DNA from: Polaromonas sp.
GTDB lineage: Bacteria; Pseudomonadota; Gammaproteobacteria; Burkholderiales; Burkholderiaceae_C
NCBI GenBank assembly: GCA_031410335.1
Contig: JANNYZ010000030.1
Location: 543-64,542 of the forward strand
Length of the DNA stretch: 64,000 bases
Direction of reading: 5' to 3'
Shown piece after piece: positions 3 to 43,293 of the stretch (the stretch's first letter is position 1; each line of letters opens with the position of its first letter). The notes below the pieces were generated by a model. The model made no database searches and was not told the DNA's origin. It saw only the letters and a program-made list of their open reading frames with translations. Made by a program: the position numbers and the translations under genes.

Positions 3-242
3 GAAGCGCAGCAGTTCCTGGACTTTTTAAACGACTGGACGCGCCTGACCACGCTGCTCAATGAAATGTCGCGCAGCATGGGGCAGCCTGATTTTTACCC
101 GTTTGTGTTGCCACGCGTGGTGGTGGCCAAGCTGCACTTCATTCATTTGCTGGTCACATCGGGTGGCAGCCCACCGCCAGCAACTGCCGAACTGGATGCG
201 GTGCAGGCGCAGACTCAGAGTCAACTTCAAATCGCTATTTAA
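3..242 (+). CDS. 3' end of a putative zinc-binding metallopeptidase (DUF2248/Peptidase_Mx-like), truncated by the window start
   Basis: Hand translation of frame 3 (absent from the ORF track): ...WTRLTTLLNEMSRSMGQPDFYPFVLPRVVVAKLHFIHLLV...QIAI*. LN-x-x-RSMG-x-x-D-x-YPFVL...KL-x-FIH is the C-terminal signature I recall for this family. Confidence 0.65.
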   Translation, partial: EAQQFLDFLNDWTRLTTLLNEMSRSMGQPDFYPFVLPRVVVAKLHFIHLLVTSGGSPPPATAELDAVQAQTQSQLQIAI

Positions 243-287
243 TCAATAGCTGCTCACGCACGTATCTATTGGCTTGGAGCCATAAAT
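234..287 (+). repeat. Dispersed ~55-bp repeat, copy 1
   Basis: GCTAT-TTAATCA-ATAGC head followed by TGCTCACGCACGTATCTATTGGCTTGGAGCC. Shares an exact 19-mer (GCACGTATCTATTGGCTTG) with the copy at 30.75-30.80 kb. Confidence 0.8.
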
Positions 288-294
288 AAGCATT

Positions 295-310
295 AAAAAG
301 GCCTTTTTTT
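295..310. terminator. Possible bidirectional intrinsic terminator between convergent genes
   Basis: Perfect palindrome AAAAAGGCCTTTTT (295-308) with A and T tracts; the GC stem is very short. Confidence 0.3.
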
Positions 311-380
311 CTCAAAATAAAGGCTCAAAACAAGCTGTCAAGGCTCCGGTGAGACGGCCATCGCCAGTTCTGCAAGCGTT

Positions 381-6499: not shown

Positions 6500-7921
6500 T
6501 CAGTGCATGGCATCTCTTAACCGCGCAAACACCTTCCAGAACGCCGCATCCTGGGTGGTGGCAAAGTTGATCCGCATCAATGTTCCGGGCTGCTGGGTAC
6601 TGTGAAACAAGGCACCGGGCGCCAGCAAATAGCCCTCGTCCAGCATGCGCTGGGCCAGCGCCTCGGTGTCGGTTCCCGTATCAACCCAGCCGAAAAGACC
6701 TGCGGGTTCTGCGGCAAAGGTGCAGCCGTGCGCCAGCGCCAGCCGGGCCGACCGGGCCCTGGCAACGTCCAGCCGGTTGCGAATTCGCTCTGCGTGGCGG
6801 CGCAACTGGCCTTGGTCAATACACCAGGCCAGTGCTTTTTCAAGCAACGCGGGCGTGGTCAGCGAGGCTAGCAGTTTGGTGTCGAGCAGGCGCTCAAACA
6901 GATGGGTGGGCGCGGCGATGTAGCCTACCCGCCAGCCAGGCGCCAGTATTTTGGCGAAACCGCTGACGTAAATCGTGCGCTGCAGACCGTCCAGCGCGCA
7001 CAGACGGGTGGCGTGCTCGGCCGCCAGGTGGCTGTAGGTGTCGTCTTCCAGAATATGAAAGTCATGCAGGGCGGCCAGCTGAAGCACACGGTGGGCGCTG
7101 CCGGGGGTGAGGCAATAGCCGGTGGGGTTGTGCAGCACGCTGACGCTGACAAACAGCTTGGGCGCATGCAGTTTGCAGTAGCTCGCCATCACGTCGAGGT
7201 CAGGCCCGGCAGCAGTGCGCGGCACCGGCAAAATGCGCATGCCCAGTGCATTGAGCCGCGCAAATTCAATCGCCCAGCCCGGCTCTTCCACCATCACGAA
7301 GTCGCCAGCGCGCAGCAGGGTGCGGCTGACAATGTCCAGCGCATGGGTGGCGCCGACGGTGGTGATGATCTGCTCGGGCGCGGCGTGAATGTTCAGGGCA
7401 TCCAGCTTTTTTGACAAGGCGCGGCGCAGGCCGCTGTCGCCCGCAGGCTCGCCATAGTGCAGCGACAGGTCATGAAGTGCCTTGGCGCCGGTGTAACGCC
7501 GCACGGCAGAGGCTAAAAACGTGGTCTGCAGCCAGTCGGACGGAAACACGCCCATGCCGGGCTGCGGCTTGGTACTGACACCATGAAACATGCCGCGAAT
7601 AAGCGCCGTGGCGTTGATGGGGTTGTGCTGGGGCGGGGAGTTGTCTGCTATTGAATCAGGAGCTGGTCGCGCATGATTTTGTTGGTCTGCAGCTATATTT
7701 CGCACATAAAAACCACGGTTTTTGCGGGCTTCAACAAGGCCTTGAGCCAGCAACTGGTCATAGGCGGCCACCACGGTGGATGCGCTCACGCCCTGCTGCT
7801 CGGCGCATTGGCGTACTGATGGCAGGCGCGCGCCGCTGGCCAGCAGCCTGCTTTTGATGCGTTCGGCAAAGCGGTTGGCCAGTTGCTCGGTCAGCGACTG
7901 GGAGGCGGTTCTCATTAGCAT
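6500..7921 (-). CDS. MocR/GabR-type GntR regulator (wHTH plus PLP aminotransferase-like domain)
   Basis: RLPSVRQCA...VSASTVVAAYDQL wHTH; LHNPTG, EDDTY, SGFAKILAPGWRVGY. Confidence 0.95.
   Translation of the reverse strand: MLMRTASQSLTEQLANRFAERIKSRLLASGARLPSVRQCAEQQGVSASTVVAAYDQLLAQGLVEARKNRGFYVRNIAADQQNHARPAPDSIADNSPPQHNPINATALIRGMFHGVSTKPQPGMGVFPSDWLQTTFLASAVRRYTGAKALHDLSLHYGEPAGDSGLRRALSKKLDALNIHAAPEQIITTVGATHALDIVSRTLLRAGDFVMVEEPGWAIEFARLNALGMRILPVPRTAAGPDLDVMASYCKLHAPKLFVSVSVLHNPTGYCLTPGSAHRVLQLAALHDFHILEDDTYSHLAAEHATRLCALDGLQRTIYVSGFAKILAPGWRVGYIAAPTHLFERLLDTKLLASLTTPALLEKALAWCIDQGQLRRHAERIRNRLDVARARSARLALAHGCTFAAEPAGLFGWVDTGTDTEALAQRMLDEGYLLAPGALFHSTQQPGTLMRINFATTQDAAFWKVFARLRDAMH
7647..7698 (+). 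repeat. Dispersed repeat, copy 2, inside the MocR interdomain linker (antisense to the gene)
   Basis: GCTAT-TGAATCA-GGAGC-TGGTCGCGCATGATTTTGTTGGTCTGCAGC matches the repeat consensus. Confidence 0.65.
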
Positions 7922-16154: not shown

Positions 16155-18314
16155 ATGAATTTTCGCCTTTTAAAAAACGCTCTGCTTTTTATAGCTGCTT
16201 GCGCACATATTCATTGGGCTACAGCCCAAATTAATCCCTTAAATGCGCCTCCAAAGGCTGCTAGCAGTGTTGTTGCAACGGACCAGGTGCGTGCCGAGCT
16301 GATGGCCTTCGCCCCCGACGGCGTGGGGCCAGGAAAACAGATTTGGCTGGGCTTGCAACTGGCACACCAGCCAGATTGGCACACTTACTGGAAGAATTCG
16401 GGCGATTCTGGCTTGCCCACAGTGCTTGAATTCAAACTGCCTGCGGGCATTGACCCCGGCGAGATTGCATGGCCGACGCCTAAAAAAATTCCCATTGGGA
16501 CGCTGGCCAACTATGGCTACGAGGGCACGGTGCTGCTGCCTGTGCCGCTGACGGTTGCGCAAAACTTCAACGCGGGGCAGCTCGACATCAAGCTCAAAGC
16601 CGCCTGGCTGGTGTGCAAAAAAGAATGTATTCCGCAAGAAGGCGACTTTGCCCTGAGTATTCCCGCCAAAAGCTCAACGGCCATCAACGCTGCCGTTTTT
16701 CAGGCGGCGTTTGATGCCAGCCCCAAAGCTCTGAAGACAAGTGCCAGCCAGATTGAAGTCGCTGGGAACACGATCAAAGTGTCATTGAGCGATTTGCCTG
16801 GCACCATGACCGGAAAGACCTTGGCGTTTTTCCCGGAAACAGGCAATGTGATCGAGCCCGCCGCGAAGTGGACGCAAAGCTGGCAGGGCAATGTGTGGAC
16901 TGCTCAAGTTCCGCTATCAGGCCAGCGCACTGAAAGCCCCACCGTCATGCCGGTCGTCGTGGCACTGGACAAAATCGCATACCGGATTGAAGCGCCTGTC
17001 AAAGGGGAATGGCCCAAAGTCGCGGCAGCCGCCCAAGTGCCGCCAGCGCTGGAGGCCGCTTTAAAAGCCAACGCCACCAGCGGTGCAGCGCCGATTCAGG
17101 CAGCCGCTACATCGCTGACTTTCTGGGCCGCTTTACTGGGCGCCTTCATCGGAGGCATGATTTTGAACCTGATGCCCTGCGTGTTTCCCGTGCTGGCCAT
17201 CAAGGTGGTGAGCTTTGTGAACGTCAAAGACCAACGCACCCGGGTTGCCACCGGGGTGGCCTACACCGCCGGTGTCACGCTGTCATTTTTAGCCTTGGGC
17301 GCACTACTGCTGGGCCTGCGCGCGGCGGGCGAGCAACTCGGCTGGGGCTTTCAATTGCAAAGCCCTGGGGTCGTGGCTGGGCTGGCCGTGCTGTTCACTC
17401 TGCTGGGTTTGAACCTGGCGGGCTTGTTTGAGTTTGGCAACTTTTTGCCCAGTCGCGTAGCCAGTTTGCAGGCCAGGAACCCGACAGTTGATTCGTTTTT
17501 ATCAGGCGTGCTGGCCACGGCTATTGCATCGCCCTGCACCGCGCCGTTTATGGGTGCATCGCTGGGCTATGCGGTCGGTTTGCCTGCGGTGCAGGCGCTC
17601 GCCGTGTTTGCGGCGATCGGCCTGGGCATGGCGCTGCCGTACCTTGCTGCCAGCGCCGTGCCGGCCATTGCACGGACCCTGCCGCGCCCTGGCGCGTGGA
17701 TGGTGACGTTCAAGCAGCTGATGGCTTTCCCGATGTTTGCCACGGTCGTCTGGCTGGTCTGGGTGCTCGGCCAGCAAAGCGGTATTGATGGTGCGGGCGC
17801 GCTGCTGGGCTTGCTGGTGCTGATGGCTTTGGCCATTTGGGCTTTGACCTTGAAGGGCCGTACGCGAACTGTAATTGCTACATTTTCAATATCAGCTCTC
17901 GCCGGTGGAATATGGTCTGTAGGGCCAAACATTACCAAATTACAGGACATTGGCACGCCTTCTTTTCAGTTAGCGAACGGCTGGCAAGCCTGGGAGCCGG
18001 GCCGTGTAGACCAGCTCACGTCAGCAGGTCAAAGCGTGTTCGTTGACTTCACGGCTGCTTGGTGCGTGACCTGCCAGTACAACAAGAAGACCACCCTGAG
18101 CAATGCGTCTGTACTGGCCGATATTGCCGCCAAAAAAGTGGTTTTGTTGCGCGCCGACTGGACACGCCGTGACCCTGCCGTGACCGCCGCCCTGACGCAA
18201 CTGGGTCGCAGTGGCGTGCCGGTGTATGTGATTTACAAGCCGGGCCGTGCGCCTGTCGTTTTGAGTGAGATTTTGTCTGTGGATGATGTCAGGGCTGAAC
18301 TGGCCAAACTTTAA
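16155..18314 (+). CDS. DsbD/ScsB-type membrane electron transporter
   Basis: Start at ATG 16155; WHTYWKNSGDSG and CKKEC N-domain; MPCVFP and SPCTAPFM membrane cysteines; C-terminal thioredoxin WCVTC. Confidence 0.9.
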   Translation: MNFRLLKNALLFIAACAHIHWATAQINPLNAPPKAASSVVATDQVRAELMAFAPDGVGPGKQIWLGLQLAHQPDWHTYWKNSGDSGLPTVLEFKLPAGIDPGEIAWPTPKKIPIGTLANYGYEGTVLLPVPLTVAQNFNAGQLDIKLKAAWLVCKKECIPQEGDFALSIPAKSSTAINAAVFQAAFDASPKALKTSASQIEVAGNTIKVSLSDLPGTMTGKTLAFFPETGNVIEPAAKWTQSWQGNVWTAQVPLSGQRTESPTVMPVVVALDKIAYRIEAPVKGEWPKVAAAAQVPPALEAALKANATSGAAPIQAAATSLTFWAALLGAFIGGMILNLMPCVFPVLAIKVVSFVNVKDQRTRVATGVAYTAGVTLSFLALGALLLGLRAAGEQLGWGFQLQSPGVVAGLAVLFTLLGLNLAGLFEFGNFLPSRVASLQARNPTVDSFLSGVLATAIASPCTAPFMGASLGYAVGLPAVQALAVFAAIGLGMALPYLAASAVPAIARTLPRPGAWMVTFKQLMAFPMFATVVWLVWVLGQQSGIDGAGALLGLLVLMALAIWALTLKGRTRTVIATFSISALAGGIWSVGPNITKLQDIGTPSFQLANGWQAWEPGRVDQLTSAGQSVFVDFTAAWCVTCQYNKKTTLSNASVLADIAAKKVVLLRADWTRRDPAVTAALTQLGRSGVPVYVIYKPGRAPVVLSEILSVDDVRAELAKL
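16179..16232 (+). repeat. Dispersed repeat, copy 4, encoding the DsbD signal peptide core
   Basis: GCTCT-GCTTTTT-ATAGC-TGCTTGCGCACATATTCATTGGGCTACAGCCCAAA = ALLFIAACAHIHWATAQ. Confidence 0.75.
17877..17931 (+). repeat. Dispersed repeat, copy 5 (degenerate), encoding a DsbD membrane segment
   Basis: By hand count, 35 of 55 positions match the 27281 copy without gaps; same reading frame (ATFSISALAGGIWSVGPN). Confidence 0.45.
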
Positions 18315-18333
18315 TTTTCAAGGAGTCCTGATC

Positions 18334-18954
18334 ATGTTGAATCGCCGAACGTTTTCGTCTTCTGTGGCCCTGGCGACTTTCGCTGCTGGAACGCAACAAG
18401 CGCATGCCGCCGCTGCTGTCGGTCAGGCTGCGCCTGACTTCACGGCGACCGATACCTTGGGTAAAACCCACAAGCTGAGCGACTTCAAGGGCAAGCACGT
18501 GGTGCTGGAATGGACCAACCCCGGCTGCCCGTTTGTTGTCAAGCATTACGGCGGCAACATGCAGGCGCTGCAAAAAGAATTTACTGAAAAGGGCGTGGTC
18601 TGGCTGTCCATCACCTCCACCGAAAAAGGCAGCTACGAGTATTTCCCGCCTGCCAAAATGGCGAGCTGGGTCAACGACAAGCAGGCCAGGCCCACAGCGC
18701 TGCTGATGGACGAGCCAGGCAAAATTGGCCAGCTTTACAACGCCAAAACAACGCCGCACATGTACATAATCAACCCGCAGGGCGTGCTGGTGTACTCGGG
18801 CGCGATTGACAGTGTGTCCTCGGCCAGGGCAGAGGACATCAAAACCGCGACCAACTATGTGCGACAGGGATTAAATGAAGCCCTGAGCGGTAAGGCCATC
18901 AGCGTGGCGTCAACCCGCTCGTACGGTTGTTCCGTTAAGTACAAAGACGCATAA
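18334..18954 (+). CDS. Exported redoxin/peroxiredoxin-like protein (thioredoxin fold)
   Basis: AGGAG RBS; twin-arginine-like MLNRRTF leader; GQAAPDF, EWTNPGCPFV, AKTTPHMY, C-terminal YGCSVKY. Confidence 0.88.
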   Translation: MLNRRTFSSSVALATFAAGTQQAHAAAAVGQAAPDFTATDTLGKTHKLSDFKGKHVVLEWTNPGCPFVVKHYGGNMQALQKEFTEKGVVWLSITSTEKGSYEYFPPAKMASWVNDKQARPTALLMDEPGKIGQLYNAKTTPHMYIINPQGVLVYSGAIDSVSSARAEDIKTATNYVRQGLNEALSGKAISVASTRSYGCSVKYKDA

Positions 18955-18958
18955 AGCG

Positions 18959-19378
18959 ATGACACCCGGCCAGACCATCCAGCACATTCTGGCCGACTGC
19001 CACACTATCGCTGTGGTGGGTCTGTCGCCCAAGCCCCATCGCGTCAGCTTTGACATTGCCCGCTACATGCAGGCCTGCGGCTATCGTATCGTGCCCATCA
19101 ACCCGAACGCAGCCGTCCCGGAAATATTGGGCGAGAAGGTCTACGCCACATTGCGGGAAGCCAGCGAGGTTGAAAAGATCGATCTGGTCAATTGCTTCAG
19201 AAACAGCCCGGACATTCCCCCTGTTGTTGATGAAGCAATAGCCATCGGTGCCAAAGCCGTGTGGATGCAGCTGGGAATTTCCCACCCCGCAGCCGCCGCC
19301 AAAGCGCAGGCGGCAGGCTTGTGGGTGGTGCAGGACCGCTGCCTGAAAATTGACCATCGGGCCCTGCCTGCCGCCTAG
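18959..19378 (+). CDS. CoA-binding domain protein (YccU-like)
   Basis: TIAVVGLSPKPHRVS, IVPINP, VWMQLGI, VVQDRC. Confidence 0.9.
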   Translation: MTPGQTIQHILADCHTIAVVGLSPKPHRVSFDIARYMQACGYRIVPINPNAAVPEILGEKVYATLREASEVEKIDLVNCFRNSPDIPPVVDEAIAIGAKAVWMQLGISHPAAAAKAQAAGLWVVQDRCLKIDHRALPAA

Positions 19379-19428
19379 TCAGCCGCAGTGCTGACTGAAA
19401 ATCAGCCTAAAGGTCGTTAAAGTAAGGC

Positions 19429-20190
19429 ATGCCAAGCCTGCTGAACCATCACCCGCGTATCAAGCAAGGCCGGACGGGGATGGTTTGCCTGCTGACACTG
19501 TTACTCGCCGGCTGCGGCGTCGCTCCCCCCGCACCTACCTCGCGCGGCGAAGCGCCTGCCGCGCCCATGACGTCGAGTGAGTTGGCGCAGTCCGATGTCA
19601 ACCGCATGGCCACACTGGGCATGCGTGACAACCTGGCCAGCTTGAACTTGCTGGCCGACAAGCTATACCGCCGCAATCCTGCCGAATGGCGCAAGGTTCA
19701 ACCGACGCGCGAGGCTGCGTTGGCCAAGCTCAAAACGGCCATTGACACCAACATGCCGTGGCCCGAGTTGCAAGGCAAACGTGACATCGCGGCACTGTCG
19801 CTGGCCCTTGGCCCGGACTTCAAGGGCGACAGGGTGGCTGCCTTTATCGCGGCCAGTGCAGACATGCTGGTGACAGCTCACGGAAACAAAACCACCTTTT
19901 ACCTGACCGACCCGCTCGACGCGCAATACATTTATAACGCTGCCCGCAACATTGAAATTGCGGTGTGGCTGTTGGCCAGCCGCAAAAATGCACAGGGCCT
20001 GCCCCTGTTACTGTCTGACGAGATCAATGACCGCGAGCGCAATCTGAGCTTTGAGCGCGAGTTTGGCAAAATCATCGGTAGGCTGGATTTGCTGTCTGCA
20101 GTGCTGACAGAAAAGTACCGCCGCGCGGTCATTACCTATGTGCAAAACCTGCTGGGCGGCACCTTCTTACAATTCTTGCCTGTACGCTAA
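19429..20190 (+). CDS. Hypothetical lipoprotein
   Basis: Lipobox LLLAGC followed by a helical domain; coherent codon usage. The start may be 19480. Confidence 0.7.
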
Positions 20191-20242
20191 GGCGCACGCT
20201 CAACATTACGCTGAAAATCCACCCCAAGAGACAAGTCACAAC

Positions 20243-21340
20243 ATGTACGCACCGCTCCAAAACGACACCTTCATCCGCGCGTGCATGCGCCAGGCCACCG
20301 CCCATACGCCCGTCTGGCTAATGCGGCAAGCGGGTCGCTATTTGCCTGAATACCGGGACACCCGCGCCAAGGCCGGCAGCTTCATGGGCCTGGCCACCAA
20401 TACCGACTACGCCACCGAGGTCACGTTGCAGCCACTGGAGCGCTACAAGCTGGACGCGGCCATTTTGTTCAGCGATATCCTGACCATCCCCGACGCGATG
20501 GGCCTCGGCCTGAGTTTTGCCTTGGGCGAAGGCCCCAAGTTTGCCCACAACGTGCGCGACGAAGCCGCTGTTGCCAAGCTGGCTGTGCCCGACATGGCCA
20601 AGCTGCGCTATGTGTTTGATGCGGTCACGTCCATCCGCAAAGCTCTCAATGGCCGTGTGCCGCTGATCGGCTTTTCAGGCAGCCCATGGACGCTGGCCTG
20701 TTATATGGTCGAAGGCGCAGGCTCTGACGACTACCGGCTGGTCAAAACCATGATGTACCAGCGGCCTGACCTGATGCACAAAATGCTGGCCATCAATGCG
20801 GACTCCGTGGCTGCTTACCTCAATGCTCAAATTGAAGCCGGCGCGCAAGCGGTGATGATTTTTGACAGCTGGGGCGGTGTGTTGGCCGATGCGGCGTTCC
20901 ATGAGTTCAGCTTGGCTTACACCAAGCGCGTGCTGTCCCAGATCAAGCGCAGCCATGACGGCGTAGTCATTCCGCGCCTGGTGTTTACAAAAGGCGGCGG
21001 ATTATGGCTGGAGGCCATGGGTCAGCTCGACTGCGAGGTGCTGGGTCTGGACTGGACAGTGAATTTGGGCAAGGCGCGCGCTCAAGTGGGCCACAAGATG
21101 GCCTTGCAGGGCAACCTCGACCCCAATGTGTTGTTTGCCAACCCGACTCAGGTCGAAGCCGAGGCGATCAAGGTGCTGGACAGCTTTGGCAAACCCCACA
21201 CGGATGCCCAAACCACAGGCCCCACCCATATTTTCAATCTTGGCCATGGCATCAGCCAGTTCACGCCGCCTGAAAACGTCGCTGTGCTGGTTGACGCGGT
21301 ACATGCGCATTCGCGCAAAATGCGTGCTGCTGCGGCCTAG
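20243..21340 (+). CDS. hemE: Uroporphyrinogen decarboxylase
   Basis: Start at ATG 20243; [44 protein letters not shown]. Confidence 0.97.
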
Positions 21341-21726
21341 CTTGCTAGCTATTTGTGACCAAGCACATCCTGCATGCATTTTTCAGGCGCCCCTAGCACA
21401 CATATGGGCAAGGGTGTTGTGACTTATGCACAAAATTTGTGCTGCAGTGCAGTAGGAAAGCGCCTACAGTGCTTCTATCGCTATCAAAGCCATAGCGCTT
21501 CTAAGTTGTTGATTTATATAGACTTCTTAAAATGCTTTTTTTACGGGCAATCTGGCGAAAGCCTTGATTTACAAGGCCTTCAGCGGTATGGGGGTAATCT
21601 ATCAACAAAGTTATCCACAGAAAAAGTGGGCTTCTTCAAAGCACTTGTAAATCAAGCACTTAGCGCGCTCTTTGCATGTGTTTCCAAAGAAGTGCCAACA
21701 ATTTCACACCAATTTGAACTCTGCGT
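21341..21726. other. Candidate chromosomal replication origin (oriC)
   Basis: Perfect DnaA box TTATCCACA (21611-21619), one-mismatch box TTATGCACA (21424-21432), two perfect IHF consensus sites (21502-21514 on minus, 21650-21662 on plus), one near-perfect site (21557-21569) and an AT-rich stretch at about 21500-21545. Confidence 0.6.
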
Positions 21727-23826
21727 ATGACCCATTGGCTAAGCGTTGTGGTGGCGACGCCTGCCCACAGTGCGGTTGCGGGGCCTCTGACCTACAGAAG
21801 TGAGTTGCCACTTGCCCCCGGCACTTTGGTGCGCGTACCCCTGGGCCGGCGTGAAGTACTGGGCGTGGTCTGGGAAAGCGCTGCCGACAGTGGCGGCCTG
21901 CTGGAAATGCAGACCAAAAACGTCGCGGGTGTGCTCGACGGCCTGGCGCCACTAAACGCGAACTGGCGGGCACTGGTCAGCTTTACAGCCAGTTACTACC
22001 AGCGCTCTTTGGGTGAAGTGGCGCTGGCCGCGCTGCCGCCGCAGTTGCGGGAACTGACCGGCCTACAACTCGCCAGGCGTTTGAAACGCCCTGTTCTAGA
22101 CACCAGCCACGCGCCGGGCGCGACTGACCTCATCGCGCTAAGCGCACAACAACAAACGGCCCTGACCGGATTCGAGGCTGAAAACAGCGAAAAAAAGCGA
22201 CCCGCACTGCTGTTTGGCGCCACAGGCAGCGGCAAAACCGAGGTGTATCTGCGTCTGGCGGCCCAAGTACTGGCGCAAGATTCGTCAGCGCAGGTCTTGG
22301 TGATGGTGCCCGAGATCAACCTCACACCGCAGCTGGAAGCGCGCTTTGCAGAGCGCTTTGCCCACCTAGGTAGCGAACGCGTGGTGGCGCTACACAGCGG
22401 CCTCACGCCCGCCCAGCGCCTGAAAAGTTGGTTGGCCGCCCATTCAGGCAACGCCCGTTTGATCTTGGGTACCCGCATGGCTGTGCTGGCGTCCATGCCC
22501 AGCCTCAAACTGATCGTGGTCGATGAAGAGCACGACCCCAGCTACAAGCAGCAGGAAGGCGCACGCTATTCAGCACGTGACCTGGCGGTGTACCGCGCCA
22601 GCATTCACGATGATTGTCGGGTGCTGCTGGGTTCAGCCACGCCGTCTCTGGAGAGTTGGCAGGCGACGATCAGCGGCAAGTACCAGCTCTTGAAAATGGA
22701 TGAGCGGATTGGCTCAGGCATTGACTCCGGCGGTTTGCCAACAGTCCGGGGTGTCGACATGAACCACCAGCCCAAGCACTGCGTGATTGCCCCGCCGCTG
22801 GTCAAAGCCATTGAAGAACGCATCGATAGAGGCGAGCAGTCGCTGATTTTTCTCAACCGCCGCGGCTATGCCCCCGTGCTGGCTTGCCAAGACTGCGGCT
22901 GGAAGAGTGAATGCCCGCATTGCAGCGCCTACCGCGTGTTTCACAAAATCGACCGCACCCTGCGCTGCCACCACTGCGGCTTTACCGAGCGCGTGCCGCG
23001 CGCCTGCCCTGCCTGCGGCAATATCGACATTGCACCTGTGGGCCGTGGAACGGAACGACTGGAAGAACACCTGGCCGAGTTGCTGGCTAACGTCAAGCGA
23101 CCCGACGGCAGCCCCGTGTGCATCGCGCGGATTGATGCCGACAGCACCCGATTAAAAGGCGCCCTGCAATCACAGCTGGCCAGCGTGCATGCTGGCGAGG
23201 TCGATGTGCTGGTCGGTACCCAGATGATCGCCAAGGGCCACGACTTCAGGCACATCACGCTGGTGGCCGCCATCAACCCCGACGGGGCGCTTTTTTCAAG
23301 CGACTTTCGGGCGCCTGAGCGTTTGTTCAGCCTCTTGATGCAAGCCGGTGGTCGGGCCGGCCGCGATGCCGCCCGCAGCGGCGCAAGTGAAATGTGGGTA
23401 CAAACCTTTCACCCCACACATCCGCTGTTTGCAGCGCTTAAAACGCACGACTACCGAAAATTTGCCGCCCAGCAACTGGAAGAACGCCAAGCCGCAGGCT
23501 TGTCACCGTTCGGCTTTTCAGCATTGATCCGCGCCGAAGCCAAAGCACAGGACGTGGCGCAGGGCTTTTTAAACGCAGCGATAGCCGCAGCGTTGGCGGC
23601 TGAGCTGGAAGGCCACAATCACATCACCGCCTACCCGGCAGTCCCCATGACCATCCAGCGAGTCGCCAACATCGAGCGCGCACAAATGCTGGTGGAAAGC
23701 GCATCACGCACTGCCTTGCAACGCTTTTTAGCCGCGTGGCAGCCCGTGCTGTTCGAGACGCGAAAGCAGGGCGACTTCAAGAGCCTGATTCGCTGGGCGA
23801 TTGATGTGGATCCACTGGCGATTTGA
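21727..23826 (+). CDS. priA: Primosomal protein N'
   Basis: GATGSGKTEVY, VPEINLTPQL, DEEHD, two CxxC pairs of the Zn region, GTQMIAKGHDF. Confidence 0.97.
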   Translation: MTHWLSVVVATPAHSAVAGPLTYRSELPLAPGTLVRVPLGRREVLGVVWESAADSGGLLEMQTKNVAGVLDGLAPLNANWRALVSFTASYYQRSLGEVALAALPPQLRELTGLQLARRLKRPVLDTSHAPGATDLIALSAQQQTALTGFEAENSEKKRPALLFGATGSGKTEVYLRLAAQVLAQDSSAQVLVMVPEINLTPQLEARFAERFAHLGSERVVALHSGLTPAQRLKSWLAAHSGNARLILGTRMAVLASMPSLKLIVVDEEHDPSYKQQEGARYSARDLAVYRASIHDDCRVLLGSATPSLESWQATISGKYQLLKMDERIGSGIDSGGLPTVRGVDMNHQPKHCVIAPPLVKAIEERIDRGEQSLIFLNRRGYAPVLACQDCGWKSECPHCSAYRVFHKIDRTLRCHHCGFTERVPRACPACGNIDIAPVGRGTERLEEHLAELLANVKRPDGSPVCIARIDADSTRLKGALQSQLASVHAGEVDVLVGTQMIAKGHDFRHITLVAAINPDGALFSSDFRAPERLFSLLMQAGGRAGRDAARSGASEMWVQTFHPTHPLFAALKTHDYRKFAAQQLEERQAAGLSPFGFSALIRAEAKAQDVAQGFLNAAIAAALAAELEGHNHITAYPAVPMTIQRVANIERAQMLVESASRTALQRFLAAWQPVLFETRKQGDFKSLIRWAIDVDPLAI

Positions 23827-23850
23827 TCCGCGGGTCAAACCCAAACTGCA

Positions 23851-24804
23851 TCACGTTAACAGCGCTACCGCGCCAGAAAAAGTAAAAAACGCCAACACCG
23901 TTGACAGCAAAATAATCCGCGCAATCCGCCCGTTGTCGGCGTTAAAGCGCTCGGCCAGCAGGGCCACGTTGCTGGCGCTTGGCAGGGCTGCTACCAGTAC
24001 CACCACTGTCAGGGCGAAATGGTCCAGCGGCAAACCCATGCGGATAGCGGTCAGTCCCATCATCAGCAGCAATACAGGGTGCAGCACCAGCTTGATCAGC
24101 ACCACCGGCAAATAATCATCAAGCGGTGTTCCACGCGTGCTGTTGGCTTGCGACCGGGCCAGCACCGCACCAATCGTGAACAATGCCACCGGCGATGCGG
24201 CATCGGCCAGCAGGCCCACGGTTTGCATCACGGGCAGCGGCAGCGTCAATTCAAAAGCCGACGCCAGTGCGCCACCCAAAATCGCCCACGGCATCGGGTT
24301 CATGGCCACGCCTTTGAGCGCGGTTTTAGCCGCCACACTCGCACCATGGCTGCCTGCTGCATCCAACCGCGACAGTGCAATGCACAGCGAGCTTGTCACC
24401 ACCAGGTCAATCACAATCGTCACAATTGCCGGGCCTGCCGCCTTAGCCCCCAGCAAAGCCACCAGCAGTGGCACGCCCATGAAACCCGTGTTGGGGAAGG
24501 CGGCCACCAGCGCGCCAAACGAGGCATCGTTCCAGCCGATATGGCCCCGGTGCGTGACGGCAGTCGTGAAACCCACCATCACCAGTGCACAAGCCAGGTA
24601 TACCGCCACCAGACTGCCATCGAGCAACTGCGCAATCGGCGTGCTGCTGCCAAAGCGGTATAGCAGACATGGCAGCGCAAAGTACAGCACAAAGGTGTTC
24701 AAACCCGGAATCGCCACCTGCGGCAGCCATCCGCGCCGCGCCGCGACATAGCCGCACAAAACCAGCGCAAAAAAGGGAAAGGTGACGAGAAGAATGGCGA
24801 GCAT
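23851..24804 (-). CDS. AEC (auxin efflux carrier) family transporter
   Basis: FALPCLLY, FPNTGFMGVP, ALPSASNV; about 10 TM segments. Confidence 0.9.
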   Translation of the reverse strand: MLAILLVTFPFFALVLCGYVAARRGWLPQVAIPGLNTFVLYFALPCLLYRFGSSTPIAQLLDGSLVAVYLACALVMVGFTTAVTHRGHIGWNDASFGALVAAFPNTGFMGVPLLVALLGAKAAGPAIVTIVIDLVVTSSLCIALSRLDAAGSHGASVAAKTALKGVAMNPMPWAILGGALASAFELTLPLPVMQTVGLLADAASPVALFTIGAVLARSQANSTRGTPLDDYLPVVLIKLVLHPVLLLMMGLTAIRMGLPLDHFALTVVVLVAALPSASNVALLAERFNADNGRIARIILLSTVLAFFTFSGAVALLT

Positions 24805-24840
24805 GTGGAAAAAGCGGTGATTTGGGTAATTTGTTGTAAC

Positions 24841-24894
24841 GCTATCAAATAAATAGCTGCTCGCGCACGATTTTATTCGTCTGAAGGCCTAAAA
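24841..24894 (+). repeat. Dispersed repeat, copy 6 (intergenic)
   Basis: GCTAT-CAAATAA-ATAGC-TGCTCGCGCACGATTTTATTCGTCTGAAGGCCTAAAA. Confidence 0.8.
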
Positions 24895-25112
24895 CAGGGG
24901 TGAAAAGACCAGTTTTCGGGCTTTTTGGCGCGTTCAGGGCCTGCCAGGCTTGTTTCAGGCGCTCCTACACGGTCGCCAGACCGTCATTTGTGTCTGGTGT
25001 CAGTGACAGCAACCCATGGGCAGCACCAACTGCCCGTTATGATTTGAAGCCAGCCCTTATGAATCTTTCTGCAGCGTCCCCGCCAGAACCCACTCCCGAA
25101 TCGACTCCCTGA

Positions 25113-27251
25113 ATGCTTGAACCCCTGGCCGACGGCCTGAACTTGGCCCAGCAAGAAGCTGTTAACTATTTTGAAGGCCCTTGCCTCGTGCTGGCTGGTG
25201 CTGGGTCAGGCAAAACGCGGGTGATCACCCACAAGATTGGGCGACTGATTCAGTCGGGCCTGAAGGCTGAGCAGATCGCGGCCATCACCTTTACCAACAA
25301 AGCCGCTGCCGAGATGCGGGAGCGGGCCAAAAAACTGATTGGCCGGCCCGCCAAGGGCGTACTGATTTGCACTTTTCACTCGCTGGGCATGCGCATGCTC
25401 CGGCAAGACGGCGAGGTGCTGGGTTTAAAGAAGCAGTTTTCGATTCTGGACACCGACGACGTGACCAGCATCATCAAGGACGCGGGTGGCGGCACCGATG
25501 CAGCCACCGCGCGGCAGTGGCAGTGGACGATCAGTCGCTGGAAGAACATGGGGCTCAATTCATCACAGGCCGCAAGCATTGCCAGCGGTGAAGAAGAAGC
25601 GCTGACCGCCCGCATCATGGCGCGCTATGAAGAGCGCTTGACGGCCTACCAGAGCGTGGACTTTGACGACTTGATTGGCTTGCCGCTCAAGCTGCTGAAA
25701 GAGCACGATGCGGTGCGTACCAAGTGGCAGGAATCGTTGGGTCATGTGCTGGTCGATGAATACCAGGACACCAACGCCACCCAGTACGAGGTGCTGAAGT
25801 GTTTGGTGGGCGAACGCGGCCGATTCACCGCTGTGGGTGACGATGACCAGTCGATCTACGGCTGGCGCGGTGCCACGCTGGACAACCTGAAAAAACTGCC
25901 GGTGGACTACCCGAATTTGAAAGTGGTGAAGCTGGAGCAAAACTACCGCTCGACCAGCGCTATTTTGCGTGCCGCCAACAACGTGATTGGCCCCAACCCC
26001 AAGCTCTTTTCTAAAACGTTGTTTAGCGAGCTGGGTGAAGGCGAGCCGGTGCGGGTGGTGGATTGCGACAGCGAAGAACACGAAGCCAGCCGCGTGGTGG
26101 CGCGTATCCAGAGCCTGCGGGCTGAGGGCACGCTGCAAGCCGCAGGCGGCCAATACCGCGAATGGAAAGACTTTTGCGTGTTGTACCGCGCCAACCACAT
26201 GGCCAAGCCGTTTGAAAAAGCTTTTCGCAAAGCCAACATCCCGTACAAGGTGTCGGGCGGGCAAAGCTTTTTTGACCGGGCCGAGATCAAGGACCTGTGC
26301 TGCTGGCTGCGCCTGCTGGCCAACAACGACGACGACCCGGCCTTCATGCGCGCCGTGACCACGCCCAAGCGCGGCATTGGCCACACCACGCTGGGCACGC
26401 TAGGCACCTTTGCCAGCCAGTACAAACTCAGTTTGTTTGAAGCGCTGTTCAGCCACTCGCTCAGCTCGGTGCTGCCTGCCAAGGCGCTGGCGTCGCTCAA
26501 TGAGTTTGGCCGCTACCTGAACGACCTGGAATACCGCGCCAAACGCACGGTGGGAGCAGAGGATGCGCTGGTGTTTTTAAAAGACTGGCTGAAAGAAATC
26601 GACTACGAAAAGAATCTGTACGACGGCGAAGACAGCGAAAAAATAGCCGCCGCCAAATGGACCAACGTGATGGACTTTTGCGAATGGATGGCGCAGCGCT
26701 GTGGTGGGCAGGACGATGATGAAGCTGTGGGCGCTGTGATGGCCAAACCAACCAAGACCATGCTCGAAGTCGTGCAAAGCATCGCGCTGCTGTCAACCCT
26801 GAGCGAACGCGAAGGCGACCAGAACGTGGTGACCCTGTCTACCCTGCACGCCGCCAAGGGGCTGGAGTGGCCGCATGTGGTGCTGGCGGGCGTCAACGAA
26901 GGCTTGCTGCCCTTCAAGATGGACGACGACGATGGCAACAATACGGACGACATCGCCCTGCGCCTGCAGGAAGAGCGCCGTCTGATGTACGTTGGCATCA
27001 CGCGCGCGCAACGTACCCTCAGCGTGAACTGGCTGCGCCGCCGCAAAAAAGGCCGCGACACAATTGCCGGATTGCCCAGCCGGTTCATTGCCGAGATGGC
27101 GCTCAATAAGGACACGGTGCGTGAAGACCCGCGCGAAAAAATCAAGGCGTTGCGGGCTGAATTTGCGCAGCGTGCGCTGGATGCCGCCGCTGCCCAAGCG
27201 ACGACCCAAGCTGCGACGCTGGAGACAGCGCATGGTCCTGCTTGGGAATGA
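25113..27251 (+). CDS. rep: ATP-dependent DNA helicase Rep (UvrD/Rep family)
   Basis: AGAGSGKTRVI, TFTNKAA, VDEYQDTN, VGDDDQSIYGWRGA, LEQNYRS, EERRLMYVGITRA; located near priA. Confidence 0.9.
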   Translation: MLEPLADGLNLAQQEAVNYFEGPCLVLAGAGSGKTRVITHKIGRLIQSGLKAEQIAAITFTNKAAAEMRERAKKLIGRPAKGVLICTFHSLGMRMLRQDGEVLGLKKQFSILDTDDVTSIIKDAGGGTDAATARQWQWTISRWKNMGLNSSQAASIASGEEEALTARIMARYEERLTAYQSVDFDDLIGLPLKLLKEHDAVRTKWQESLGHVLVDEYQDTNATQYEVLKCLVGERGRFTAVGDDDQSIYGWRGATLDNLKKLPVDYPNLKVVKLEQNYRSTSAILRAANNVIGPNPKLFSKTLFSELGEGEPVRVVDCDSEEHEASRVVARIQSLRAEGTLQAAGGQYREWKDFCVLYRANHMAKPFEKAFRKANIPYKVSGGQSFFDRAEIKDLCCWLRLLANNDDDPAFMRAVTTPKRGIGHTTLGTLGTFASQYKLSLFEALFSHSLSSVLPAKALASLNEFGRYLNDLEYRAKRTVGAEDALVFLKDWLKEIDYEKNLYDGEDSEKIAAAKWTNVMDFCEWMAQRCGGQDDDEAVGAVMAKPTKTMLEVVQSIALLSTLSEREGDQNVVTLSTLHAAKGLEWPHVVLAGVNEGLLPFKMDDDDGNNTDDIALRLQEERRLMYVGITRAQRTLSVNWLRRRKKGRDTIAGLPSRFIAEMALNKDTVREDPREKIKALRAEFAQRALDAAAAQATTQAATLETAHGPAWE

Positions 27252-27754
27252 CCATGAAGCGCCAGACATTCAAATCAATTGCTATATTGTTAATAGCTGC
27301 TAGCGCACATATAAATTGGGCTAGAGCTCAAAACAACCTCCAAAACCAGCTCAAACCAGCCTGTCCGGCGCCCAAAACCGTCAAAGCGCAGCAGCTCTAT
27401 GGTGTTTGGCAAGTCACCTTCACTGACCCGCCTGCTGGAATGCCCGCCAGGGCCGTCATGCTGCTGGAAAAGCATGAAGAATTTGCCGACAGCCTGGCGG
27501 GCATCGTCAGCCGTGACCCGGTCACGGCCACCGGTCATGCCGCCAAGGCCGCCTTGGCAGGTGATGTCGACGACGGCTTTGTGATTCTGGACGAGTCCAG
27601 CGACAACATCAGCATTTCTGGCACCTGGAACGGCGAGCTGGTGCAAAGCAGTTGTGGCCGTGAAGTCAAAGGCGTGTGGAAAGACACCAGTGCCACTGCA
27701 TTGCCTGATGCGCCCGATGTGCCGTTCACCATGGTCAAGCGTCCGGGCTGGTAA
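27248..27754 (+). CDS. Hypothetical exported protein
   Basis: ATGA overlap with the rep stop; signal peptide ending ARA|Q; beta-rich domain (LYGVWQV...ISGTWNG). Confidence 0.7.
   Translation: MTMKRQTFKSIAILLIAASAHINWARAQNNLQNQLKPACPAPKTVKAQQLYGVWQVTFTDPPAGMPARAVMLLEKHEEFADSLAGIVSRDPVTATGHAAKAALAGDVDDGFVILDESSDNISISGTWNGELVQSSCGREVKGVWKDTSATALPDAPDVPFTMVKRPGW
27281..27335 (+). repeat. Dispersed repeat, copy 7, encoding a signal peptide core
   Basis: GCTAT-ATTGTTA-ATAGC-TGCTAGCGCACATATAAATTGGGCTAGAGCTCAAAA = AILLIAASAHINWARAQ. Confidence 0.8.
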
Positions 27755-29405: not shown

Positions 29406-30719
29406 GTGCGGATGATTGAACCAGACGCCTTTACCCTCGGCTGCATCATTGTTGGCATGCTGCTGATTGCCAAAACGCTTGGCGGCTCTTTCATTGCTAG
29501 GCTGCCACTCAGTGCCGCGATGTTGTACCTGGCGGTCGGCGTGGCGATAGGGCCCTGGGGCTGGGGGCTGCTCAAGCTGGATGCTTTTAAAAACACCGTA
29601 TTACTGGAGCGACTCACCGAGGTGGCGCTGCTGATATCGCTGTTCACAGCTGGCATGAAGCTGGAGCTGCCGCTCAAGGACAGGCGCTGGCGCATCCCGG
29701 TGCAGCTGGCGACGGCCTCGATGCTGCTGACGGTGGCGGCCGTCACGGGTGCAGGCGTCTGGCTTTTGAATCTGCCACTGGGCGCCGCCGTGTTGCTGGG
29801 CGCGATTCTGGCGCCGACTGACCCGGTACTGGCCTCTGATGTGCAGGTGTCCAACCCGGGTGATCGTGATCGGCTGCGCTTTGGTCTGACGGGGGAGGGC
29901 GGGCTTAACGACGGTACGGCTTTTCCACTGGTCATGCTGGGGCTGGGCTTGCTCGGCCTGCATGAACTGGGCGACCTGAAGTGGCGCTGGTGGTCTGTGG
30001 ATGTGCTGTGGGCGGTGGCAGGGGGTCTGGCTTTGGGTTATGCCCTCGGTACGCTGGTGGGGCGCGCCATCATTTACTTGCGGACCCAGCGGCTTGAAGC
30101 GCTGGGCTCGGATGAGTTCATCGCACTTGGCTTGATTGCGTTGACCTACGGGCTGGCACTGCTGACGCTCACTTACGGGTTTTTGGCTGTGTTCGCCGCC
30201 GGGCTGGCGCTCAGGCGCATTGACGAGCCAGATGCCGTTGCAACACCAACGGTCAACACAGAACTCAGTGCTGAAGACCGGCGCGCCACGGGCAGCCATG
30301 CGCCTGCCCATATGATGCGGCAGGTGGAGCGCTTTAACAGCCAGTTGGAGAGCTTCGCGGAAGTCGCCATCGTGCTTGTGGTGGGTGTGCTGCTGGCCAG
30401 TGTCAGGTTTCATACCGCAGTGTGGTGGTTCGTGCCGCTGCTGTTTTTGGTGATACGGCCGGTTGCCGTGGCGATTGGCCTGTTGGGTACCGATGCGCAA
30501 CCCGCCCAGCGCCGCCTGATGGCCTGGTTTGGTATACGCGGCATTGGCTCGTTGTATTACTTGCTCTACGCCATCAGCCACGGTATTGAGGTGCCGCTGG
30601 CCAGGCAGTTGCTGTCCATCACGCTGGCCGTGATCGTGACGTCTGTGATTGCGCACGGTGTTTCGGTCACGCCGTTGATGAAACGATACGAAACGCGCAA
30701 AAGCGCCAGAAAATCATAG
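29406..30719 (+). CDS. CPA1/NhaP-type cation:proton antiporter
   Basis: LAPTDPVLAS, GEGGLNDG, WFGIRGIGSLYY; multiple TM helices. Confidence 0.9.
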   Translation: MRMIEPDAFTLGCIIVGMLLIAKTLGGSFIARLPLSAAMLYLAVGVAIGPWGWGLLKLDAFKNTVLLERLTEVALLISLFTAGMKLELPLKDRRWRIPVQLATASMLLTVAAVTGAGVWLLNLPLGAAVLLGAILAPTDPVLASDVQVSNPGDRDRLRFGLTGEGGLNDGTAFPLVMLGLGLLGLHELGDLKWRWWSVDVLWAVAGGLALGYALGTLVGRAIIYLRTQRLEALGSDEFIALGLIALTYGLALLTLTYGFLAVFAAGLALRRIDEPDAVATPTVNTELSAEDRRATGSHAPAHMMRQVERFNSQLESFAEVAIVLVVGVLLASVRFHTAVWWFVPLLFLVIRPVAVAIGLLGTDAQPAQRRLMAWFGIRGIGSLYYLLYAISHGIEVPLARQLLSITLAVIVTSVIAHGVSVTPLMKRYETRKSARKS

Positions 30720-30749
30720 AGAAAGCGAAAAGCACCGTTTTCAGGTGAC

Positions 30750-30803
30750 GTTTCGTGTTTCAAGCCAATAGATACGTGCACTAGTAGCTCCTGAATAAAT
30801 AGC
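30750..30803 (-). repeat. Dispersed repeat, copy 8 (intergenic, between convergent genes)
   Basis: Reverse complement: GCTAT-TTATTCA-GGAGC-TACTAGTGCACGTATCTATTGGCTTGAAA. Confidence 0.8.
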
Positions 30804-30820
30804 GTCTGAATTTGCTAAAT

Positions 30821-43040: not shown

Positions 43041-43048
43041 TGCTTATT

Positions 43049-43102
43049 GCTCTTATTTTAAGAGCTGCTACCGCATGTATCCATTGGTCTGGAGGCTTAT
43101 TT
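43049..43102 (+). repeat. Dispersed repeat, copy 9
   Basis: GCTCT-TATTTTA-AGAGC (compensatory variant of the head), then TGCTACCGCATGTATCCATTGGTCTGGAGGC. Confidence 0.78.
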
Positions 43103-43293
43103 GGCAGCTAAAAATGGCCTAAAAACCTCCGTAAATCGCGCAAAGTGCCAAAAAGTGCCGCTAAACCATGCCTGACATGGCTTAAAACCGACAAAAAAAA
43201 GCTACTACTGAGTTGGGAAATAGACGCGTTGGTATTTATGTGGCAATATTTGGGGGTTAGTTTTTAAACCCCACTATCGATAACGAGATCAAC

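Follow-up and report, generated by a model that had tools for sequence, protein, structure and literature searches.

In-frame copies of a dispersed Comamonadaceae repeat in the predicted signal peptides of two unrelated Polaromonas proteins

We analysed a 64,000-nucleotide (nt) stretch of DNA from Polaromonas sp. (hereafter the window; all coordinates are window positions) and found that two of its genes, one for a DsbD/ScsB-type thiol:disulfide reductase (below, DsbD) and the other for a protein of 168 amino acids (aa), share near their 5' ends a segment belonging to a dispersed, mostly intergenic repeat family, this membership being supported statistically. The explanation that we consider probable is that repeat copies were captured in frame after the start codons of two genes for periplasmic proteins, where they act as Sec signal peptides. 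The two genes, their predicted signal peptides and the repeat copies within them are located as follows (the slash denotes the predicted cut).

16155..18314, + strand: gene for the DsbD/ScsB-type thiol:disulfide reductase, 719 aa (ATG at 16155; Pfam domains DsbD_N, DsbD_TM, and Thioredoxin_7; match to 6C29).
16155-16226, + strand: predicted signal peptide of DsbD, M1-A24, cleavage A24/Q25 (from the translation).
16179..16271, + strand: in-frame sense repeat copy in DsbD, core 16179-16235, weaker tail to ~16271 (nhmmer, extended profile, position weight matrix).
27248..27754, + strand: gene for the 168-aa protein, function unassigned, predicted 8-stranded calycin/avidin-like barrel (AlphaFold, Foldseek).
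27248-27328, + strand: predicted signal peptide of the 168-aa protein, M1-A27, cleavage A27/Q28 (from the translation).
27279..27373, + strand: in-frame sense repeat copy in the gene for the 168-aa protein, core 27280-27333, weaker tail to ~27373 (nhmmer, extended profile, position weight matrix).

The DsbD open reading frame (ORF) starts with MNFRLLKNALLFIAACAHIHWATA/Q (longer reading MNFRLLKNALLFIAACAHIHWATAQ), and that of the 168-aa protein, with MTMKRQTFKSIAILLIAASAHINWARA/Q (longer reading MTMKRQTFKSIAILLIAASAHINWARAQ). The repeat copy encodes ALLFIAACAHIHWATA/Q and approximately 12 first mature residues in DsbD, and AILLIAASAHINWARA/Q and a Q/N-rich mature start in the 168-aa protein. 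A degenerate pattern of 35 nt covering both N-termini matches the window only at 16191 and 27293, with zero matches expected by chance, and no N-terminus of this kind is seen in other ORFs of the window. When the repeats of the window are grouped, both in-gene copies cluster with copies at 233, 7646, 24840, and 43048 on the forward strand, and with 30761-30804 on the reverse strand. These intergenic copies are found in either orientation and in varied settings, such as the space between divergent genes or the region past a stop codon:

233..312, + strand: intergenic copy (repeat grouping, profile).
7646..7722, + strand: diverged intergenic copy (repeat grouping, family D1; rank 5 by the position weight matrix on free columns described below).
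24840..24942, + strand: intergenic copy between divergent genes, with a stop in the signal-peptide frame (repeat grouping, profile).
30711..30805, - strand: intergenic copy in the opposite orientation (repeat grouping, family I1; profile E=0.0023; extended profile E=1.2e-4).
43048..43140, + strand: intergenic copy, 8 nt past the stop codon of the upstream gene (repeat grouping, profile).

A profile hidden Markov model was built from 113 intergenic copies, all of them from other genomes. According to nhmmer, this foreign intergenic profile matches the DsbD gene at 16179-16235 (E=8.3e-15) and the gene for the 168-aa protein at 27280-27333 (E=1.7e-13), scores equal in strength to those of the window's own intergenic copies. 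As the search pattern behind the profile had been read off the copies of the window, we controlled for circularity with a position weight matrix (PWM) on the 44 profile columns that the pattern left free. By this PWM, the seven copies are exactly the top seven among 127,878 window positions, the in-gene ones ranking second (DsbD, 34.6 bits) and fourth (the 168-aa protein gene, 30.7 bits), after which the score drops to 9.7 bits at the next position. An extended gapped profile yields 59.0 bits (E=1.6e-17) for the DsbD copy and 54.2 bits (E=4.9e-16) for the copy in the other gene; the additional length adds about 8 bits to both, suggesting that the homology spans approximately 95 nt and extends into the first dozen mature codons. 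The in-gene copies are identical to the consensus at 44 and 43 of 58 positions, respectively, compared with 39-46 of 58 for the intergenic copies of the window. Derivation of one in-gene copy from the other was considered and rejected, as their mutual identity (44/58) is no closer than that of either to the consensus. Thus, the profile, the PWM, and the alignments confirm the observation of the first-pass annotation of this DNA that the hydrophobic region (h-region) and the A-x-A cleavage site of both proteins are the repeat read in frame. The two proteins are also unrelated, as claimed there, since the best BLASTP match between their mature parts has E=0.86.

The family extends far beyond the window. 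When bacterial and archaeal genomes, one per species, were scanned for the core pattern ATAGCTGCTNNCGCACRTAT, at least 115 stretches were retrieved, nearly all from Comamonadaceae (Polaromonas, Giesbergeria, Simplicispira, Variovorax sp. PCZ-1, and one metagenome-assembled genome, MAG, of Rhodoferax), and among the matches listed nearly all copies fall outside plausible ORFs. The consensus, tGCTAttAAtTT.ATAGCTGCTtGCGCACGTATTtA.tGGGCTAGAGGCctATTTgac, comprises a conserved core of approximately 60 nt and a weaker tail to approximately 95 nt. Five of its six reading frames contain stop codons and one is open, reading AINLIAACARIYWARGLFD. The open frame of the repeat (AINLIAACARIYWARG; A-I-x-L-I-A-A-C-A-R-I-x-W-A-R-G) encodes a hydrophobic stretch followed by small residues. 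Because only one frame is open, a copy surviving inside a gene has to use that frame and orientation, which makes the shared frame of the two in-gene copies less remarkable; and, the open frame being hydrophobic, a signal peptide or a membrane helix is the likeliest place for a copy to be tolerated. In this frame, 61 out of 113 intergenic copies are open over 18 codons and 52 contain stops; stops of this kind, already mentioned in the first-pass annotation, are seen in the window at 233 (GCT ATT TAA) and 24840 (GCT ATC AAA TAA).

Both N-termini match the anatomy of standard signals predicted to be recognized by Sec and signal peptidase I. Positive charges of the n-region directly follow the start (Arg4 and Lys7 in DsbD; Lys4, Arg5, and Lys9 in the 168-aa protein); then come the hydrophobic cores ALLFIAACA and IAILLIAASA, respectively, with Kyte–Doolittle 9-residue means peaking at 2.7 and 2.9, and the predicted cuts are preceded by A-T-A and A-R-A, hence by small uncharged residues at positions -3 and -1, and followed by Gln.

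The codons of these segments are those of the repeat. In the genes of the window (41 long ORFs), the G+C content of third codon positions (GC3) is 0.67, and ATA accounts for 6% of Ile codons, GCT for 16% of Ala, TTA for 3% of Leu, and AGA for 3% of Arg. The signal segments, with GC3 of 0.29 (DsbD) and 0.38 (the 168-aa protein), use exactly those rare codons, base for base as in the repeat; in DsbD these include ATA, GCT, and TTA. From ATA to the codon at position -1, the third base of the DsbD copy coincides with the foreign intergenic consensus at 12 out of 12 codons. Two codons differ from the consensus in a way that matters: CAT instead of CGT replaces Arg by His after the h-region, and GCC or GCT instead of GGC gives Ala in place of Gly at -1. 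The former takes an arginine away from the hydrophobic core, and the latter provides alanine at -1. In 117 relatives of the 168-aa protein, the position of the consensus arginine is occupied by His (77), Cys (11), Gln, Asn, and Tyr (6 each), and Arg (3); codons for His, Cys, and Gln are one base away from CGT.

The encoded peptide is well conserved. For the 168-aa protein, conservation was counted in the best 120 of 580 relatives (65-96% identical), and at single signal positions in 117 relatives. All 120 carry IA..A.I.WA.AQ, with the consensus AIFLIAACAHI.WA.AQN; alanine is found at -3 in 112 and at -1 in 115 of the 117. In an alignment of 40 relatives, Ala17 and Gln28 are invariant, and Ala25 and Ala27 are nearly so. 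Among representatives of the family clustered at 50%, many distant ones show ..(I/F)(L/F)IA..A.....A.(A/G)QN, and others have ordinary signals. The motif is also present in at least 41 of 99 complete N-termini of DsbD relatives, as counted with a regular expression that undercounts it, while ordinary Ala/Leu-rich signals occupy the same place in Variovorax, Hydrogenophaga, several Ramlibacter, and others, including locus L127 (68% GC).

At the DNA level, a second DsbD gene and the genes for the 168-aa protein in three other assemblies (loci L116, L118, L121, and L122) keep ATA GCT GCT TGC GCx CAT ATx xAT TGG GCT ... GCC CAA. Where residues are identical, codons are identical in 60 out of 74 cases in the repeat part and in 364 out of 607 cases in the mature part (Fisher p=3e-4, the pairs not being independent). 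In the DsbD gene of a Rhodoferax MAG (L125), the profile still matches with E=6e-9, and a 1-nt deletion combined with a 1-nt insertion turns R-I-Y-W into L-S-T-G; in a Polaromonas MAG with 64% GC (L128), both ends of the copy are kept and the middle is not. Judging from this conservation, the repeat-coded signal is kept by selection on the peptide, and the arrangement is common to many Polaromonas-like species and, for DsbD, also to Rhodoferax-like ones.

Taking all this into account, we suggest that repeat copies landed in the open frame just after the start codons of the two genes. The gene would contribute the start codon and the Lys/Arg n-region, and the repeat, the h-region, the c-region, the signal peptidase I site (A-x-A/Q), and probably the first dozen mature residues, whereas the two point changes (CGT to CAT, GGC to GCY) would have adapted the repeat to its role as a signal. 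In the simplest reading, the capture happened long ago and was then inherited vertically, with selection maintaining the peptide; from the sequences we infer the export, the cleavage site, and the direction from repeat to gene. Both passengers are extracytoplasmic by nature: DsbD is a periplasmic protein, and the same is predicted for the 168-aa protein from its modelled fold. As both would be periplasmic with any signal, the repeat likely replaced an existing signal and nothing was retargeted. The domestication of the repeat as a portable signal for retargeting proteins, proposed in the first-pass annotation, is thus upheld insofar as an in-frame signal is kept by selection, and is not upheld as regards retargeting.

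Several points weigh against this explanation. The division into n-, h-, and c-regions was judged by inspection and from a Kyte–Doolittle hydropathy profile. The approximately 1 Mb of related DNA surveyed consists of loci selected for the presence of a repeat copy. Among close relatives, no empty site was found, and no target-site duplication turned up, although this was not specifically examined. The string I-A-A-C also fits a lipobox, so DsbD here could be processed by signal peptidase II. Finally, in four loci with 63-68% GC (L120, L123, L124, and L126), the peptide F(L/F)IA..A....A.AQ is still encoded, by GC-rich codons that have drifted, and the surrounding 5-21 kb contain no detectable repeat. 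This goes some way towards what had been named beforehand as contrary evidence, namely distant orthologues that lack the repeat and share the signal: the GC-rich relatives do have a similar peptide, albeit with drifted codons, and the other DsbD relatives have ordinary signals. Since these relatives keep the peptide with no repeat nearby, the peptide seems to outlive the repeat, and the capture would be old.

The same relatives could be read in the reverse direction, i.e., the repeat arose as part of a gene that encodes a hydrophobic helix (the DsbD signal, the eighth transmembrane helix of DsbD, TM8, or a helix of TrpF) and dispersed later. It would agree with the resemblance of DsbD TM8 to the repeat, in frame, in three genomes, and with an internal in-frame copy in TrpF of two Polaromonas MAGs, which causes no apparent change of length (both described below). 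We regard it as improbable, since at least two unrelated genes, as well as LolB and one more lipoprotein, share the sequence, and flow from repeat to gene is therefore needed anyway; moreover, other DsbD relatives have ordinary signals, the segment is AT-rich with rare codons, unlike the native coding DNA of the genome, and about half of the intergenic copies (52/113) contain stops even in the sole open frame. The lipobox, in turn, leads to the proposal that F/L-I-A-A-C directs DsbD and most relatives of the 168-aa protein to signal peptidase II, with cleavage before the cysteine and lipidation. The lipobox consensus is [LVI][ASTVI][GAS]C, and I-A-A-C fits it; the same position of the repeat is the lipobox cysteine of LolB in L054, and cysteine is present there in 88 of the 117 relatives of the 168-aa protein. 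In the remaining 29, it is replaced (by Ser, Tyr, Gly, Phe, or Trp; Ser in the protein from the window), while the alanines at -3 and -1 and the following glutamine are nearly invariant, which argues for cleavage at A-x-A/Q, and DsbD relatives vary at the cysteine position as well. Hence, we give little credence to lipidation of these proteins.

A different question is whether the in-gene copies are still active members of the family, held near the consensus by gene conversion or by a role at the DNA or RNA level, so that the signal co-evolves with the repeat. In addition to the 12 matching third positions in DsbD, the copies are as near the consensus as the intergenic ones, the rare codons are conserved among relatives (81% vs 60%), and both genes have the I-x-W variant typical of the Polaromonas intergenic copies, with L-S-T-G instead in Rhodoferax-like DsbD and in several distant relatives of the 168-aa protein. 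For the Rhodoferax-like and GC-rich genomes, no repeats are detectable in 3-21 kb around DsbD, and so there are no local intergenic variants to compare. On the other hand, the c-region of DsbD signals in other Polaromonas MAGs varies freely (VATTGATA, AFGTSAAA, ALPNWASA), and rare AT-rich codons are generally favoured at 5' ends and in signal peptides for translation and export; we consider continued membership unlikely. In its broadest form, doubtful to the same degree, the 60-nt repeat unit would be a reusable cassette for hydrophobic helices (a signal peptidase I signal, the LolB lipobox, a signal-anchor in TM8, and even a helix of cytoplasmic TrpF), and gene conversion involving the hundreds of intergenic copies would hold the coding ones near the consensus; if this were true, a selfish repeat family and the signals by which essential envelope proteins are exported would evolve together. 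It is highly improbable that the annotation is at fault, i.e., that the true starts lie downstream and the repeat is a 5' untranslated region or intergenic DNA. Intergenic copies do often adjoin gene ends, but the frame is open through the repeat in 120 out of 120 listed relatives of the 168-aa protein and in every DsbD relative with a complete N-terminus, the peptide is conserved residue by residue, four genes for the 168-aa protein aligned by codon keep the frame despite amino acid gaps, and no other hydrophobic segment precedes the periplasmic N-terminal domain of DsbD. Nor is the likeness due only to the constrained composition of signal peptides, rich as they are in Ala, Leu, and Ile: this reading, with next to no probability left, is rejected by the DNA-level statistics, given the shared rare codons, and no other such N-terminus is found among 3,433 six-frame ORFs in approximately 1 Mb.

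In-gene capture of this repeat is recurrent but rare, and it does not constitute a general export system. The generality suggested by the first-pass annotation was not borne out: scanning of the approximately 1 Mb of fetched Comamonadaceae DNA (the 3,433 ORFs) for the peptide motif yields only relatives of DsbD and of the 168-aa protein, and the DNA profile, which finds 244 copies in 896 kb with few in-frame coding uses, adds LolB, one lipoprotein, and TrpF. In a Polaromonas MAG, the lipoprotein signal of LolB (PF03550) is a repeat copy (L054, 6835-6776, - strand, E=2e-8), and its lipobox, L-I-A-G-C, is one substitution away from I-A-A-C of the repeat. In a Giesbergeria MAG, a copy (L026, 6182-6211, + strand, E=2e-6) forms the n-region LNLIAASARRTRAAA of a lipoprotein that has no Pfam match, and has its own hydrophobic core and lipobox downstream of the repeat-coded n-region. 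In two Polaromonas MAGs, TrpF (PRAI, PF00697) contains an internal in-frame repeat-like stretch, EIIAACARIQGA (L040, 4738-4682, - strand, E=4.6e-9; L074, 2623-2679, + strand, E=3e-8), with no obvious change in length compared with what we take to be the sequence of Escherichia coli TrpF; this is a cytoplasmic case resembling the palindromic elements of Rickettsia. A possible further use is seen in DsbD itself:

17875..17936, + strand: possible third in-frame copy, much decayed and tentative, encoding the last transmembrane helix of DsbD, TM8 (best non-copy PWM position, 9.7 bits).

This helix lies just before the exported thioredoxin domain; it is the best non-copy match in the window and is read in the open frame of the repeat. 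In L120 (11757-11818, 38/58 nt identical to the consensus) and in L121 (~1686, - strand, over all profile columns), only the signal matches better than the orthologous TM8. Wider searches added little. A metagenome scan for signal-competent copies gave 0 matches with a pattern that required GCA at a codon variable among relatives; its relaxed version gave two, one relative of DsbD and one of the 168-aa protein, too few to judge generality. A search of a collection of 5.8 billion proteins with a 51-aa concatenation of three signal variants returned no candidate proteins.

Fusion of a dispersed repeat to genes has precedents. Enterobacterial intergenic repeats have open frames and have been found fused to genes (Delihas, 2007, PMC2759123; review PMC2229807). 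In particular, the Yersinia miniature inverted-repeat transposable element (MITE) RU-2/YPAL, also hydrophobic, makes up a part of the signal peptide predicted for Y. pestis YPO1552, homologues of which elsewhere have unrelated signals (PMC2759123, PMC2229807). The system is therefore not undescribed in kind, contrary to the first-pass annotation: both cases involve an intergenic repeat, dispersed and hydrophobic in its open frame, whose in-frame fusion to a gene provides at least part of a predicted cleavable signal, and ours is the same kind of event involving another repeat family and better supported. RU-2/YPAL concerns one hypothetical protein, known only from Y. pestis and Y. pseudotuberculosis, and forms a part of a 41-residue signal, whereas in Comamonadaceae the h-region, the c-region, and the cleavage site are encoded entirely by the repeat, in two proteins conserved across many species, one of them a well-known envelope enzyme. 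Similarly, frame-shift fusions of ERIC/RU-1 form predicted transmembrane helices (Delihas, 2007, PMC2759123) and share with our case a repeat-encoded hydrophobic stretch serving as a membrane or export motif; the ORFs concerned there are for the most part short, show little conservation, and have a doubtful function, while the Comamonadaceae passengers are conserved and recognizable.

Rickettsia palindromic elements (RPEs) lengthen proteins that are complete without them, and mostly cytoplasmic, by an internal segment. Unlike them, the Comamonadaceae copy takes the place of a functional N-terminal targeting sequence, the internal TrpF copy being the closer RPE analogue. Repetitive extragenic palindromic (REP) sequences and bacterial interspersed mosaic elements (BIMEs) are likewise short, abundant, and mostly extragenic, with a small hairpin and few inverted pairs in our family; our family differs in having a 5-bp hairpin only, instead of a structurally conserved imperfect palindrome of 20-40 nt, and inverted partners are found for 6 of 118 copies. 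REPs are not known to encode signal peptides. Compared with ordinary Sec signals cleaved by signal peptidase I, the positive n-region, the hydrophobic core of 9-10 residues, and A-x-A before the cut are the same, and the difference lies in the coding DNA: it belongs to a repeat family, its codons are rare and AT-rich, and two unrelated genes have it in nearly identical form. As selfish palindromic repeats residing in frame inside ORFs and leaving the genes intact, RPEs, the classic in-frame repeats, were described by Ogata et al. (2000), as cited in PMC2759123.

The repeat family itself is apparently undescribed: a literature search for a Comamonadaceae repeat found nothing relevant, and comparison with Rfam 15 gave no gathering-level match in the window and nothing credible at E≤1 for two intergenic copies. 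On plasmids, BLASTN of the consensus produced three weak matches and TBLASTN of the peptide none. A small hairpin, GCTAT-N7-ATAGC (5 bp), shows 59-86% pairing; its covariation is not assessable, as the search pattern fixed one arm, and no consensus secondary structure of the repeat emerged (alifold, -3 to -4 kcal/mol). In the 5' hairpin of the copy at 43048 (43048-43064), GCTCT...AGAGC replaces GCTAT...ATAGC; this double compensatory change suggests that the hairpin may be structurally constrained. The consensus shows no evident terminal inverted repeats. At Giesbergeria-type loci (L020, L026, L045, and L083), some copies, four of the 118, have an inverted partner at a distance of exactly 40 nt, which gives a MITE-like unit, and the Polaromonas copies are nearly always single. 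At the left edge of the window, an ORF entering at 3-242 (+ strand) and ending in ...QSQLQIAI* takes its last two codons and the stop TAA from the repeat copy at 233 (GCT ATT TAA).

The two genes provide a clean and statistically solid case of non-coding selfish DNA that supplies a working, as predicted, targeting sequence in bacteria; it involves a recognizable envelope enzyme, it is conserved in many species, and the point changes that adapt it to its role (Arg to His, Gly to Ala) can be seen. It is also an experimentally easy system for studying the origin of new signal peptides, with intergenic "proto-signals" as natural controls. For annotation, it implies that repeat masking or rules of start-codon choice that avoid repeats would shorten these genes, and that such repeats can yield false signal-peptide predictions in spurious ORFs.

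As for the proteins themselves, the match of the N-terminal domain of DsbD to the solved N-terminal domain of ScsB (6C29) begins at query residue 46, and thus the repeat-coded part precedes the fold. This long N-terminal periplasmic region (16155-17020, approximately 290 aa) has that domain, deposited as a "putative metal resistance protein," as its only solved relative by sequence, and the protein is possibly closer to ScsB than to classical DsbD. The 168-aa protein has no Pfam match and belongs to a family of 580 homologues (E≤0.001) with two invariant cysteines in the 40 aligned relatives; its AlphaFold model (predicted local distance difference test, pLDDT, 81) is an eight-stranded up-and-down barrel, best matched in Foldseek by the N-terminal barrel of periplasmic PvdP, and also by avidins and lipocalins. 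The start of its gene overlaps the stop codon of the upstream gene for a UvrD-type helicase (ATGA), and in several genomes the two genes adjoin with the same 4-nt overlap of stop and start.

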